Shown: positions 255 to 44,472 of the stretch, in pieces
How the letters are laid out: the number at the start of each line of letters is the position of its first letter
How positions within the stretch are numbered: position 1 is the stretch's first letter
From: Eledone cirrhosa
Taxonomy: Eukaryota
Direction of reading: 5' to 3'
Assembly: GCA_964016885.1 (NCBI GenBank)
Contig: OZ024743.1
Location: 272,490,001-272,554,000 of the forward strand
Length of the DNA stretch: 64,000 bases
Program-made: the position numbers and the translations under genes
The notes under the pieces: model-generated
Databases searched by the model: none
What the model was told of the DNA's origin: nothing
Seen by the model: the letters and a program-made list of their open reading frames with translations, nothing else

Positions 255-415
255 GTACCAGTCCGGTACTGGAGTTATTTCTTCCTCCATATTTCTTTAT
301 TTCTACCCTCGCCCACCCACCCCCTCTCTCTCTATATATATATAGAGAGAGAGATGTGATGGGGGAGAAATAAAGAAATATGGAGGAAGAAATGACTCCA
401 GTACCGGACTGGTAC
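255..415. repeat. Inverted duplication: about 50-bp arms 255-304 / 366-415 with a palindromic (CT)n(TA)n(GA)n tract in the spacer
   Basis: GTACCAGTCCGGTACTGGAGTTATTTCTTCCTCCATATTTCTTTATTTCT is reverse-complementary (1 mismatch) to 366-415; the right arm runs into a degenerate SINE. Confidence 0.9.
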
Positions 416-535
416 TTTTTTTATCGACATCGGAGGGATGAAAGGTGACCTCGGCACGATTTGAATTCAGATTTACGAATACCTCAAATCATTCTATCCG
501 ATGTTCTATCAATTCATGTTCGGCCAATTTATCAG
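400..535 (-). mobile_element. Degenerate copy of the main tRNA-derived SINE family
   Basis: CTGGTACTTTTTTTATCGAC..GGATGAAAGG..CCTCGGCACGATTTGAATTCAGA matches the reverse complement of the SINE core seen many times in the window. Confidence 0.7.
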
Positions 536-617
536 CTTCAATTTTATTAATACAGCGGACTCCAAACCCCACAGTGGTGCCTAGCTAGACAACAATAGCC
601 TGCGCATTGGCGTTTCC

Positions 618-1256
618 TTGAGGCTCGGCCTCCGGATCTGCAAGCCACACCAATGTCGCTGCGGATCCACCCTGGACTCTTTCGGCCTCCACGCGCTTTC
701 CTATCGCCACAGTGCCGGCCACCTTCCACGCCATGCTGCCCTCAACGAGATCATAAAGCATGGCTTGGACGCTGCGGTCTTCCCTTCCCAGCTCGAACGG
801 GTGCGGCTGGACCGAGAGGACAGCAAAAGGCCAGATGGCATGACCATCTTCCCGTTCCGCGGTTGCAAACCCCTTGTTTGGGATGCTACTTGCACCAACA
901 CTTTCTGTAGCCGCTACCTGGGGCAGTCTGCGACTAACCCAGGTTCTGATGCACGTCGGGCTGAGGAGGCCAAGCTCCTCAAATACCGGTCGCTCTCCGA
1001 CAGGTTTGCGGTTGTACCCTTGGCAGTGGAGACTTCTGGTGTCCTCGGCTTTAGGGCTACCTCCCTACTCACCACCATAGGTGCTGAGCTGGCCAGCCGC
1101 AGGTGTGAACCCCGCGAGTTGGAGTGGCTTTTCCAGCGCGTCTCCCTTACCGTCCTCCGGGGGAACGCCTTCTCCATCCTGTACGCCGAGGCTGTGTGTG
1201 TGTGTGTGGTGGTGTGTGCCTTTGTGTGTGTGTGTGTGGGGGGGGGCATCGCGTAA
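618..1256 (+). mobile_element. CRE-like non-LTR retrotransposon 3' fragment (zinc knuckle plus restriction-like endonuclease), ending in (TG)n
   Basis: ORF has CxCG..HAL, RH..LN, RPDG..WDATC, AE..K..KY, PLAVETSG and WLFQR..RGNA motifs typical of CRE-clade C-termini; GC-rich island; 5' truncated. Confidence 0.85.
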
Positions 1257-39445: not shown

Positions 39446-42400
39446 CTTCAATTATGTAACATTGCCAAATATGCGCTTCGATTAAATAGTCCACTTTGAA
39501 CTATCTGGGTGGTAGACTAAATCCATCGTCCATGTTAGCATTGCCATGTAGGTCTTGGTTGTATTTAGTGAGGAGCACTATGCTGTAAGCAGTCGGGTCA
39601 AGGTTAGATGGGGGTCCATCTTCCTGTCTCTCACATGTCTCAGAAGCACCGAGAAGGATTATAGGCTCCGTCCTTCCGTTGCTGATTAAACAATGTATAC
39701 AACATCCTAGTGTCAATTAAAGAGAACAAAAAACAAAAAAAGAAGCATGAGATTGACTGAGAAAGATACTTTCACCGAGACTCTCAATCACTACTACTCA
39801 AGCATACTGATTCGTCACTATCTCTTAAACTGATATTATAATGGCTTATACAACTTTCCGAACTACTAAAGTACACACAATTACCTCTAAATCTCATCCG
39901 GTGGGCTTGCCTTTTGTTTTCTTACTGCATCTCTTCACCACCCTAAAACGTACACCAAATATTTTACCCAAGCTTGCCGCTTCATATCTCCAGCTTCCTG
40001 GAATTACATCCCAGCCGACATTTTTCACACAACCATCAACCGAAAGTAGTTAGACATCAACTGCTTTGACACCACCATTTTGAAACAAGCTTCAATGCTC
40101 ACTAGTGCTTCCTCTTTGTACTTCGATTAAGTACGTTTCTTGTTTTATGCTTAGATAAAAATATTCTCAAATCCTTGATAAGCGGAATATTCATTGCAAA
40201 GATGCAGAGATGCTACAAATTTTGTAATGTGAAAGGCACTATTGATTAGACATTGAAGTATCAGAAATATAGTATTATTTTTGTAGATATTCCGGTTTAC
40301 AACTGCCTAGGCTTACAAACTCTGACAATGTTGCAACACATAGGAGATTTCTTGAGTGTTTTGATGTTGAGGGCCTCAAATGTATGAAATATATCAAACA
40401 ATCCCATCAATCCACATCCGTGGACTACTACTTTTTATACCCTGAAAGAATGAAGATAAAAATTGACTTCGGTTGGATATAAAATATATGAACAGATAAC
40501 CAAAACGATACAGCACACTTAATACGATCTAGCTACTTCGCCAATTCGCCGATCAGTAATTTATTTTGATCGATTGAATTGATTATCGCCACTCTGTCTT
40601 TCTCCTTTGTAAGAACCAAATGATAATTCATTTACATACCAGACGCACGTCAAACGCACTCTCACACACGTATTCCCCAATATCTGAATGTGACAGCTAA
40701 TTAGGAGAGAGACAGTCAAGTATATTGACTTTCAGAAAAAAGCTACAAAGAAACACATATAATTACTTTGACTATAGTCAAGTTGAGTATTCAGGTAAGT
40801 GTGAGTTGAAAGAGACGAAACTGCATTGATTGATTTTTAATTAAGGACAAACTTAAGATAGCAGCACAAAACCATTAATATAATTCTTTCGTGCGTGTGA
40901 AAATATGTCACAATTTCTTTCTTACAAAATCTCATCTATCATTATCATTATAATCATTACTATTATTTTTTATCATCCTTGATATTATTATATTCTTTTA
41001 TCTCAGAAGATTCACGAACTTTCACTTTATCTGACGTGTTTTTTCTTTAATCATATATTTACTTATTTATTCATTTATTTATTTATTTTTGCAATTATTG
41101 GCAATCAGTTTATTATTTGTCTTTAAAGTGTGTTGCTGGAAAATACGTTTTCCCTTAGTCTGGTTTAAATTGTATTACGACACATCTGTGAAATATGATA
41201 AATGTAGTATATCCAATAACATAGTGATAGTCTATTATGCACATGTTGAATTCTGATCTCTAAATCATACATTGCTCCCCCCCCCCATATATATATATAT
41301 TGTTTTGGAAATGATATCTCATATATATATATATATATATATATATATAAACGGAAAAAATGAAACGAAATTTCATTTCCCACTCTTAGTACGGCTGTTA
41401 CTTAAATATAAGTATGTATATATATATGATATCTCACACATATATATATATATATATATCACCACCCCACTCTCAAGAGCGTGAAACTAATAAACCTTTG
41501 TTCGTACTGCCTCTCTGTTTTGTTCCCGTTCAATTTTTTTACTATATATATATATATATATGCAGGAACACACACACACGCACACACACGCACACACACA
41601 CACACATGTGCACGAGACTGGTATCTTTATCGTTGCTCCTCAGAATTTATGTCATACACATTTTCCCATTAAACGAAGACCGTTCTGAGTTGGACATATT
41701 TAAAATATTCAAGATGGAGTTGCTACGTATCTATTTCATTGCCTATTACAGGTGACTTACCTTTGATACATAGATTTATTAGGAGAACTGCTCACTACAA
41801 TAGCTTGTGCCTTTAAAAGTTATTTTCCTTTTTTGTAAAATTGAAATTTTTATTTCAAGTTTTCATTCCTGTAGTTATAAATTCAAATTTTATTGATTTT
41901 GTATCGAGTTTGCATTTTACTGATATTTCTAGATTGCATTTTCTTTGCAAGCATGATAAAACCTCATCTTCCCAGTTCAGATTCAGTTAGTATTCTAAAC
42001 CTCTCAGTTATAGATAAATTACATTTTCTGCTACGTCGGTTGTATTGTTTAACTTTCTCAGCAGTAGACATTCTACAATTATTTAGATACGATGGGCTCA
42101 GATTCTTCAGTTACGATAAAAACAGAACTAAATAACCACATCCAACTGAATGCCACGGAATTACTATCGCTCCGACGTGACTGAATATGACTGCATAAAG
42201 ACGAATTAAGATCAACAGTTGATGCAGAAAAGGTATATACCAGGTTAACAAGAACCAGCTCAAAATCTGACATACACAGCATTGTATTTCATTAAACATA
42301 AAAGAAAATTCAACTTTATTTCGTAACCACGGTATGTATAGCATCGAAAAGACAGATGTGAAATCTTCTCAATATAATACTGCGAAAGCTAAACTATACA

Positions 42401-43002
42401 GCCTACCTCACAATTGATACAATTTATACTAACTGCACCTATCAATAATCTGAGTAGAAGAGACGAAACCTTTTTCTTAGAACGGAAGAAAAATATGTTT
42501 TGAACCTTTTAATAATATCTCTATGCTAGTTTCACTTCACTTAGAAATCAAATGAATGAAGAAAGGTCAAACTGCAAATTTCGTCAAAAACCAATAACAA
42601 ATAAGAATAAATCTTTTTGATGGATATCGAAATAGCCGTAGAATTATTTTCCTGGGGGATTCTAAACAACATATATTACGATAAATTTCCAGTATTGAAT
42701 TCATGTACCGAAGCTATACTAGCGGGCATAGATTTCAGACGTAAACACTCTTCCATGTTTGATGAAATATGTATAATCTAAAACTTAGAATATCAATCTA
42801 AAAAACACCGACCATGTAGGTTAGCTAACTCATATAATCAACTATTGAGTACTGTCTTCTTTTTCGCGAAACAAAATCCTATATATATAGTAATAATAAT
42901 AAATGTGAAGACTAAAATCTAAAGAGTTTCAGAAGATCCCGTTAAGGGTGAAAGCAGCGATTCTTTCCTTAAACTTTAATGTTATTTTAATATATATATA
43001 TT

Positions 43003-44472
43003 AAAAGCAATGAGAATTTTATTCAAAATTAGTAGTAAATTGAGTTCGATGACCTTATTTGGAGTTAGCTGAAGAACAAACCAATCAGATTGTTTTTTCC
43101 CCCATATGATGTTAAGATGAATAAGAAGTCACTTTAGTTGAGGTCATGGCCCTTTGAAAGGAATGGTTGAATGGTGTTAACAATAGAATTGCTATAAAGA
43201 ATCTATGAGGAAAAAGAGGATTGTCATATTGATAGTTGCCGCACACTCTAGTAGTTTTAACAATACTAAACTAGCTAACACCACATTTTTAGCTGAAGCA
43301 GTAAATAACTATAAAAAGAAAAAAATAGATTTCAAAAGGACGATTTATTGAATAAAAGACAGGAACTGATTATAGTTTGTAATCACCGTATACGAAAAAC
43401 ATTTAAATACTATAAACCTAATTAAATATTCTAAATAGCAACTCACTATAATTCTGTGTAGCGTAACATGTGTTAGTTTCCCTTGCCCCTAATTATACGC
43501 ATTCATGCTTATTTCTTACCTTTTAATTCTTTAGCTTCCTTAGGTTTATGTGTTAATGACTAAAGGCATCAAAGTACACAACCACCCGTAATTGCATGAG
43601 TAAATATGTATCTATGTATGTATGATATGAGAATATATATATATATGTGTATATATGTGTATATGCGTGTATATGTGTATGAGTGTTTATGTGTGTGTGT
43701 ACATGTATGTGTATATACACATATATATATATATATATATATGTCTGTATAGGTGTGTATATGTATATATGTATATATATATATATATGTATATAATTGT
43801 GTGCACATGTGTAGATGTATGTATATGTTTACATCTATTTATGCGTATGTATGTTTTTTATTGAGTATCAATATAACTATACCTCTATCTATAATGTGGG
43901 TATATGCACTTTGTGATCTATGAAATTTATGCGTTTTGACAATGTCAACATGCATTTATCTGAGTTTGATTATTTCTACATGGACATACTTGAAAGTATA
44001 TTAAGTTGTATCATACGCTGTATTATACTATGCACAATGTATCACACCGTACTATATTGTGTTATATTATATTATATTATTGTATTACTATATTTCATTA
44101 TCTTATTATAATTTTCATCTTTTAATATACTATCTTTCCTGGTCATGACCATAATTTATATTCACCTAAAAACTCCATACAATACAACTCAATATTTAAT
44201 TTTTACATTCCTTTTAAACTTCACTATACCATATACATTCAACTATCAATATGACAATCCCCTTTTTCCTCAGATTATTTATAGCAATTCTATTGTTAAC
44301 ACCATTCAACCATTCCTTTCAAAGGGTCATGACCTCAACTAAGTGACTTATTTTTCATCTTAACATCAAATGCGGAAAAAAACAATCTGATTGGTTTGTT
44401 CTTCTGCTACCTCCAAATAAGGTCATATAACTCAATTTACTACTAATTTTGAATAAAATTCTCATTACTTTT
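43003..44472. repeat. Inverted duplication, about 235-bp arms (43003-43238 / 44240-44472), 1-kb spacer, (TA)n at the left end
   Basis: Reverse-complement match with scattered mismatches. Confidence 0.92.

Follow-up and report, generated by a model that had tools for sequence, protein, structure and literature searches.

The present analysis concerns a 64-kb window of Eledone cirrhosa DNA, namely the whole stretch of 64,000 nucleotides at positions 272,490,001 to 272,554,000 of contig OZ024743.1 (assembly GCA_964016885.1), which holds ten inverted duplications, most of them with an outer end near a (TA)n tract. Two of these units, D and F (the labels A to J are those of this analysis), appear to be 5'-truncated copies of Penelope-like elements (PLEs), and most of the units lacking an open reading frame (ORF) are likely stubs or passengers of the same kind of enzyme, placed in (TA)n. 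The probability of this reading was estimated at about 0.78. It is based on the head-to-head geometry of the units with their 3' ends outward, hammerhead ribozyme motifs, TA adjacency, one-sided extensions, and high sequence depth. The pattern is largely the published insertion signature of PLEs, found well above chance in a TA-rich octopod genome.

Inverted duplications and their TA tracts

Inverted duplications were sought by self-BLAST and pairwise alignment, with arm identity counting substitutions only. Scans and coverage refer to the non-satellite part of the window, approximately 46.1 kb (46,100 bases), and enrichment was computed inside the window. All ten inverted duplications listed in an earlier sequence-only reading of this DNA were recovered at the positions it gave, with arms of 60–546 bp and arm identities of 93–99%, as follows.

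A, 255–415, 95.0%
B, 4401–4559, 93.6%
C, 4642–5037, 97.9%
D, 21478–23578, 94.0%
E, 23746–25205, 93.5%
G, 25254–25565, 98.1%
H, 34160–34385, 99.1%
F, 35192–36649, 93.7%
J, 37149–37473, 93.4%
I, 43003–44472, 94.4%

Including the inner arms of E, the arms cover 3869 of the 46,100 non-satellite bases (8.4%). Several units carry a one-sided tail of 20–96 nt on a single arm only. The units had been described as nearly all of unrelated sequence, which is correct for most of them, but G and J belong to one family. The further claim that almost all units have an outer end abutting a (TA)n tract held in a looser form. With the ends taken as originally given, 9 of the 10 units had a tract of (TA)≥4 no more than 25 nt away from an outer end, whereas random placement gave a mean of 1.06 units near TA and a maximum of 6, with 0 of 5000 trials reaching 9; the per-end background for a nearby (TA)≥4 was 0.054. 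Direct contact (≤5 nt) was found at 7 of 20 ends and in only 6 of the 10 units, and "abutting" is therefore too strong for A, B, F, and J. Moreover, arm ends drift into TA because (TA)n is self-complementary, which is a caveat on the anchoring.

When one-sided tails were counted, 9 of the 30 TA tracts of at least 12 nt touched a unit end, the extended ends having been picked after inspection. The chain D-(TA)7-E-(TA)24-G-(TA)17 measures 4.2 kb and would occupy what was once a single microsatellite. Other tracts shared in this manner, tails counted, are B-(TA)18-C, H-(TA)8, F-(TA)30-G/J, and B'-(TA)6-I, where B' is an additional unit described below. As TA is left on both sides by each insertion, different families could therefore stack in one tract (D-E-G, B-C, H...F-G/J, and B'-I). 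Such stacking, which is read from the ends chosen after inspection, would explain the local density of units.

Palindromes of this kind may also be produced by long-read fold-back chimeras or assembly errors. No contig crossed a palindrome centre among the longest pieces listed for 21200–37900 (contig sets X1, X3, X4, and X5), and the arms of C, G, and H are nearly identical. However, the arms differ by 1–7% plus indels, the tails are asymmetric, and the sequences on both sides of the units are unrelated, whereas a chimera would mirror the rest of the read. In addition, the unique flanks match X1/X3 contigs with 0–1 differences. An artefact is thus extremely improbable.

Penelope-like copies with inverted arms

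The presence of PLE coding sequence in two units was borne out. D holds a reverse transcriptase (RT) and a GIY-YIG endonuclease, and F holds the endonuclease end of a Hydra-clade element. The parts of D are listed below.

21478–23443, minus strand: direct copy, a 5'-truncated PLE with coding sequence at 23441–21892, a 3' untranslated region, and its end on (TA)8
21637–21675, minus strand: minimal type I hammerhead, core at 21671, predicted cut at 21637
23444–23634, plus strand: inverted arm (23444–23578) and 56-nt tail (23579–23634) ending on (TA)7

The coding sequence of D comprises RT motifs, a thumb, a CX4CxxC linker, and a GIY-YIG domain with an internal Cys pair, and it contains frameshifts and stops. 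The order of RT and then GIY-YIG, covered by tblastn relatives over 23441–21892, is that of endonuclease-bearing (EN+) PLEs, and the linker, the two Cys inside the GIY-YIG core, and a following His make up a CCHH motif with a linker of the Neptune/Nematis type (CX2-5CxxC). Among 1289 relatives found, one of 1047 amino acids was aligned over residues 561–1037 (E 6e-90), and the alignment stops 3 nt from the inverted arm. A gap of 3 nt separates the start of the arm from the truncation point, and at its other end the arm extends 56 nt beyond the direct copy to (TA)7. This tail, which is missing from the direct copy, reads as a putative ORF start: it continues the frame from an ATG at 23553 that opens MTLTNYNNIGFNTR... 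and resembles the N-terminus of the full-length relative P0024 (GFNTR in D, GYNTR in P0024). In addition, 2226 restriction-site-associated DNA (RAD) reads terminate at 23624, within this tail. Tails of Pen2a_Av hold an ORF start (Arkhipova 2013, PMC3846280).

F was resolved into the following two parts.

35192–36101, minus strand: direct copy, the 3' part of a Hydra-clade PLE, with an open frame at 36101–35408 and a minus-strand hammerhead at 35238
36102–36668, plus strand: inverted arm (36102–36649) with a plus-strand hammerhead at 36603 and a 19–20-nt extension to (TA)30

F displays a C-terminal endonuclease, a CxCX5C linker, and CxxC and CxH motifs, with no Cys inside the GIY-YIG core and no CCHH, and it was matched by eye to the Hydra alignment, including Hydra-1_Obim. 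It is bordered by (TA)30 on the right and imperfect TA on the left, and its hammerhead has a weak stem II. The extension on the inverted arm is putatively element-derived. The copy stops before the RT, in which the Hydra clade carries RWK and DKT motifs (Craig 2021, PMC8557442), and the RT of F is absent from the window. Relatives of the F endonuclease, near or longer, were absent by word search and in metagenome contigs; the atlas yielded unnamed mollusc/cnidarian clusters, one of which has GIY-YIG in 23% of its members.

Both D and F thus combine a hammerhead near the 3' end, an inverted 5'-truncated copy, and a one-sided tail. Craig 2021 reports that units are often flanked by an inverted copy with a truncated 5' end and that they carry a tail of 30–40 bp at one end. 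The same paper describes (TA)n as the insertion target of Naiads and of almost all Hydra families, with Naiad_Obim, Naiad_Ovul, and Hydra-1_Obim showing this preference. As the inverted truncated copy, the one-sided tail, and the (TA)n targeting are already described there, the arrangement is documented PLE behaviour and not a new system.

A further, Neptune-like PLE remnant was observed at 16300–17040 on the minus strand. Its linker and GIY-YIG domain lie in two frames, and a hammerhead was not found in it.

Hammerhead motifs

Hammerheads were searched for with a structure-aware descriptor scan for minimal type I motifs, allowing one unpaired base on each side of stem II. The scan returned 6 motifs in 46.1 kb, as compared with 0.06 on average across 200 Markov controls. 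They are located in both arms of E, both arms of F, the spacer of D, and at 37036 (minus strand) upstream of the G/J tail, so that none of the 6 canonical motifs lies outside D, E, F, and the G/J family. Six units had been described as containing a hammerhead or consisting of the tail downstream of one; such a link was confirmed for 5 of the 10 units, while the sixth, B, retains only a relic. Stem I measures 8 bp in E and 6 bp in G/J, and loop 3 is palindromic, a feature of hammerheads noted by Cervera and de la Pena (2014). A stricter first scan had given 4 matches, one of them (30911) outside all units, and had missed F and 37036. Matches to CTGANGA...GAAA at 5476, 22093, 30911, and 45180 were dropped as they had no proper stem I/III. 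In Rfam, no hammerhead was present among 106 matches at E ≤ 1, and the approximately 100 miRNA matches, all below gathering scores, were microsatellite and hairpin noise.

Non-coding families

The ORF-less units most directly tied to PLEs are E, G, J, B, and B', whose parts are given below; where no strand is stated, the feature is an inverted structure.

23746–25207: E, arms 23746–24041 and 24902–25207, right end on (TA)24; non-coding, high-copy
24518–24603 and 24820–24905: inner arms of E; the right copy lacks approximately 476 nt
25103–25163, plus strand: E hammerhead in the right arm, with the 8-bp stem I and palindromic loop 3; mirror copy at 23840, minus strand
25254–25628: G, arms 25254–25409 and 25416–25565, with a 63-nt extension on one side; flanked by (TA)24 on the left and (TA)17 on the right
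36729–37149, minus strand: G/J unit, approximately 420–435 nt, non-coding, hammerhead at 37036 (minus strand), 3' end on (TA)30
37150–37584: J, arms 37150–37255 and 37368–37473, and a further inverted fragment at 37474–37584
41350–41420, minus strand: short tail of the G/J family between two (TA)n tracts, with no inverted arm; another fragment lies at 24176–24243
4309–4559: B, arms 4401–4478 and 4482–4559, right end on (AATA)n(TA)18
4491–4514, plus strand: hammerhead relic of B, with CAGAAGA, a 3-bp stem II, GAAA, and no U16.1; the same occurs in B' near 42930
42890–42989: B', a direct B-family copy (42924–42989) and a 37-nt inverted arm; (TA)5 left and (TA)6 right

In E, a tail may be present at 23650–23745, although this is putative. 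The inner arms are 99% identical as compared with 93.5% for the outer arms, and the right copy skips approximately 476 nt at a TATA overlap, perhaps through a template jump. In one frame, the E arm showed a likeness to a Hydra coding motif, which was unsupported by tblastn and was rejected.

G is a palindrome of the G/J family tail, and the G/J unit at 36729–37149 is partially tandem with the left arm of J. The 3' end of the family lies on TA in all four copies (24190, 25629, 36728, and 41349). Moreover, other genomic copies of this family extend past the centre of G into its hammerhead-bearing body (joints from 25413 to 36952–36978, in a loose-end consensus of 47 contigs). Summed contig depth in set X1, which is not a copy number, was approximately 12–30 in single-copy bins, 29,396 in the E-only bin, 44,875 and 49,594 in the F bins, 524,813 in the G/J bin, and 616 in the H bin. 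In a contig comparison, E and F were nearly absent from a related organism, called organism B, which therefore points to expansion in this lineage.

B was compared with the hammerhead consensus of CUGANGA, GAAA, the pair A15.1-U16.1, and NUH; both B and B' show CAGAAGA in place of CTGANGA and no U16.1, and are not minimal type I hammerheads. The left (inverted) arm of B bears a 92-nt extension (4309–4400) ending on (CA)60. B', which was absent from the earlier list, has two parts in head-to-head orientation that overlap by 3 nt, namely a direct part corresponding to the right arm of B and an inverted arm of 37 nt. These 37 nt match the far end of the 92-nt extension of B, inverted (37/39 positions), and the direct copies of B and B' end at the same point.

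No PLE coding sequence was found in B, C, E, G, H, or I by six-frame reading and by tblastn with 153 proteins. Non-autonomous hammerhead repeats derived from PLEs have been described (Cervera and de la Pena 2020, PMC7229834; Li 2026 preprint, 10.64898/2026.07.22.740005), and Craig 2021 states that short abundant 3' ends are left unclassified by automated pipelines. Six short motifs of the non-coding families were absent from the Craig 2021 supplement, and by that comparison the particular families look undescribed.

Mechanism of arm formation

The following mechanism is proposed. The RT/GIY-YIG protein would nick both strands of a TA tract, and each of the two 3'-OH ends would then prime reverse transcription. 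One cDNA would begin at a proximal and the other at a distal start site on the RNA, and the "tail" would correspond to the stretch between these sites. The two cDNAs would stop early and join through 0–4 nt of complementarity, so that overlapping cDNAs would give a palindrome and non-overlapping ones a non-palindromic head-to-head join, as in B'. The non-coding units (E, G, J, B, B', and probably C and H) would then be stubs or non-autonomous passengers. For one PLE protein studied in vitro, both target strands are cut and extended at AT-rich sites, and reverse transcription starts at two sites bounding the tail (Frangieh 2024).

The same PLE origin may be combined with a different source of the inverted arm, namely self-priming by fold-back of the cDNA or of an antisense RNA template (Arkhipova 2013), with the tail arising from endonuclease trimming of the intermediate (Craig 2021). 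This suits the spacers of 3–20 nt in B, G, and H, the nearly identical arms of C, G, and H, and the centre of G, where a GCCG...CGGC hairpin of the family sequence lacks 5 loop bases; junction palindromes are also known in rotifer PLEs (Arkhipova 2013). In D, F, and B, however, the short inverted arm carries the tail and the long direct copy is without it. B' is more telling, as its inverted arm is pure tail and shares just 3 nt with the direct copy, which favours two-ended priming over fold-back. An arm lying wholly downstream of the end of the direct copy could not be copied from it without further precise trimming, a step that fold-back would need each time; the direct copies of B and B' end at an identical point. 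J joins without overlap. Overall, priming from two ends is judged slightly better than an even chance, and self-priming rather unlikely; according to Craig 2021, how PLEs acquire this arm is an open question. B'-type joins would provide a countable discriminator between the two.

Units assigned by shape and the exception A

C, H, and I bear no coding or ribozyme mark, and their assignment was made by shape alone.

4614–5037: C, arms 4642–4783 and 4896–5037 (98%), with a 28-nt one-sided extension (4614–4641) and (TA)n at both ends
34160–34385: H, multi-copy, 103-bp arms with 1 mismatch and a spacer of 20 nt; (TA)8 at the right end
43003–44472: I, 236-bp arms (94%) separated by a 1-kb spacer; (TA)6 at the left end, no TA at the right end

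The window scan and tblastn gave neither a hammerhead nor an ORF match in C and H, and no hammerhead in I. Both C and H share the outward-TA shape of the PLE units. Target-site duplications were not seen at H or I and are unreadable in the TA at C. These units could alternatively be non-autonomous DNA transposons resembling miniature inverted-repeat transposable elements (MITEs), with long terminal inverted repeats and a TA preference. Consistent with this, they are without a hammerhead or PLE coding sequence, the 236-bp arms of I enclose an AT-rich spacer of 1 kb, and TA tracts would hide any duplication of TA. On the other hand, the one-sided 28-nt extension of C ends on TA as in proven PLEs, I and H have neither TA nor a duplication on one side, and all three occupy the same tracts as the hammerhead families. 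A MITE-like nature of some of them is thus considered unlikely.

Between the TA tract of H and F, a repeat with internal tandem duplications was observed at 34407–35190, with no hammerhead; its depth was 4772 in X1 as compared with 2.4 in organism B, and it is therefore lineage-specific.

A differs from the other units.

255–415: A, a palindrome centred on (CT)n(AT)6(AG)n

Its arms open with approximately 25 nt of a dispersed repeat of approximately 200 nt, which we take to be similar to short interspersed elements (SINEs), and the repeat body at 388–472 (minus strand) runs into the palindrome. The arms face inward and TA is central, so that the geometry of PLE units is absent, and A is, judged by its structure, a different kind of event from PLE insertion. 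DNA-level fold-back at broken (TA)n hairpins, by repair or replication template switching with no retroelement, would suit A as well as the compound palindrome (AC)24(AT)14(GT)15 at 15606–15711. As a general explanation it is highly improbable, because the other nine units have TA at their outer ends, their arms correspond to the 3' termini of repeat families, and the hammerhead enrichment would be left unexplained.

The SINE-like family was observed in 12 copies (388–472, 3762, 5620, 7566, 7736, 9562, 14356, 18041, 20149, 33049, 33848, and 45300), some in inverted pairs 1.7–1.9 kb apart, with a local mirror arm only at the copy in A. Compound microsatellites were present at 15606–15711 and 6090–6202, the former being, like A, a near-perfect palindrome centred on TA.

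Weighing the assignment

The sequence-only reading had attributed the ORF-less palindromes to PLE machinery aimed at (TA)n. This is supported for E, G, J, B, and B', is plausible for C and H, and fails for A. PLE origin is regarded as highly probable for D, F, E, G, J, B, and B', fairly probable for C and H, and less likely than not for I, which is left unassigned.

Several observations weigh against the proposed origin. In D, the Pfam matches (RVT_1, E 5e-4; GIY-YIG, E 4e-3) are below the curated cut-offs, and three full-length relatives gave no RT or GIY-YIG match at E ≤ 0.05. The likeness of its ORF start was found in 1 of 7 long relatives (over 850 amino acids) and was not significant in blastp, and the RAD reads that terminate inside the tail may partly derive from the D locus itself. 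F is without a Pfam match, stem II of its hammerhead has just 2 bp, and the hammerheads fold no better than shuffled sequence (z −1.8 to 0). In the window scan and tblastn, C, H, I, and A had neither a hammerhead nor a protein match, and within the window the non-coding families showed no similarity to D or F, nor was an autonomous partner found for any of them. Target-site duplications are unreadable within TA, and no empty site was present among the contig rows listed for 21200–37900 (X1, X3, X4, and X5), a range outside which A, B, C, and I lie. Fold-back is equally compatible with the centre of G, which coincides with a 4-bp hairpin in the family sequence. Finally, the third PLE, at 16.3–17.0 kb, has no inverted arm and its 3' side lies on (CA)29; together with the armless tail at 41350, it demonstrates that arm formation is not universal among PLE copies.

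Double-stranded RNA and significance

If transcribed, H is predicted to fold into a 103-bp duplex (−170.8 kcal/mol). A role of the palindromes as substrates for ADAR editing is a proposal, and they are candidates known here from DNA alone; the mismatch spectra of the arms are not polarisable and therefore uninformative on editing. Inverted SINE-like pairs in the same window, such as 7596/9629, are a competing source of double-stranded RNA (dsRNA). As reported in Porath 2017, octopus has the highest dsRNA potential and hyper-editing, and lizard Penelope is massively edited, and octopus was left out of the repeat-family analysis. No paper linking octopus or cephalopod Penelope to editing was found by title or abstract in the literature searched. 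The families described here are thus concrete candidates for filling the octopus gap in that analysis. It is conceivable, and in our estimation improbable, that PLE integration is true twin target-primed reverse transcription, as in B', and that (TA)n insertion by many autonomous and non-autonomous families is in octopods a main source of the long near-perfect hairpins behind the exceptionally high dsRNA content and hyper-editing of octopus. For annotation, short TA-flanked palindromes in octopod genomes would be read as Penelope-type 3' stubs and not as MITEs, miRNA precursors, or assembly errors.

Other features of the window

The following features lie apart from the units.

10732–12147, minus strand: region of a single-exon SAXO1/2 ORF (10735–12084), Pfam 1.5e-37
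46104–64000: array of at least 18 kb, with 682 copies of a 27-bp unit composed of 9-mers and 83% matches
585–1240, plus strand: 223-amino-acid frame ending on (TG)n; a similar GC-rich fragment lies at approximately 27070–27570

The best matches of the SAXO ORF were from Octopus vulgaris (66%) and Argonauta (57%), in keeping with an octopod host, and at least two octopod SAXO paralogues occur among the matches (66% and 41%); the ORF is possibly a retrocopy. Plus-strand frames of the array are Thr/Lys- or Gln/Pro-rich, reach 264 amino acids, and are broken by stops, being mucin-like or satellite. The frame at 585–1240, which has no Pfam match, presumably resembles the restriction-like endonuclease end of a CRE-type non-long-terminal-repeat (non-LTR) element.

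Comparison with known systems

The EN+ PLE insertion unit (Craig 2021, Fig. 2; Pen2a_Av) is the closest counterpart. In common with it are 5' truncation, an inverted 5'-truncated copy giving flanking inverted repeats, a one-sided tail with an ORF start, partial tandems, a hammerhead near the 3' end, and a microsatellite target. In contrast, the copies here mostly comprise the last 70–550 nt, the tails measure 20–96 nt as compared with 30–40, several families are stacked per TA tract, and the arm of B' does not overlap the direct copy. F resembles the Hydra-clade PLEs, among them Hydra-1_Obim of Octopus bimaculoides (Craig 2021, Files S1/S2), in its CxCX5C linker, the absence of CCHH, its CxxC and CxH motifs, hammerhead, and TA ends, whereas the hammerhead stems and protein, compared by eye, indicate a different family. 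D is likened by motifs alone to the Neptune/Nematis-type C-terminal EN+ PLEs, with which it shares the order of RT then GIY-YIG, the CX2-5CxxC linker, the internal Cys pair, and a minimal hammerhead; its RT motif was absent from the searched Craig 2021 supplement.

The G/J unit can be compared with non-LTR retrozymes (Cervera and de la Pena 2020; Li 2026). It is a non-coding, AT-rich unit of approximately 430 nt, within the retrozyme range of 150–450 nt, with a type I hammerhead, a partial tandem, and high depth. Unlike retrozymes, it occurs in this window as a single hammerhead-bearing unit, with no two-ribozyme array, and as TA-anchored head-to-head stubs.

For the two-ended priming of PLEs, no paper was found by title in the open literature, subscription papers being outside this coverage, and the two-ended reading may not be explicit there. 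In L1 twin priming, reportedly proposed by Ostertag and Kazazian, two target ends are said to prime two cDNAs that are joined by microhomology, giving a 5' inversion. Two primed cDNAs joined by microhomology are likewise envisaged here. However, the second L1 primer is internal and the arms do not overlap, whereas in the units of this window both cDNAs would begin at the 3' end or close to it, and the arms would therefore duplicate that end.

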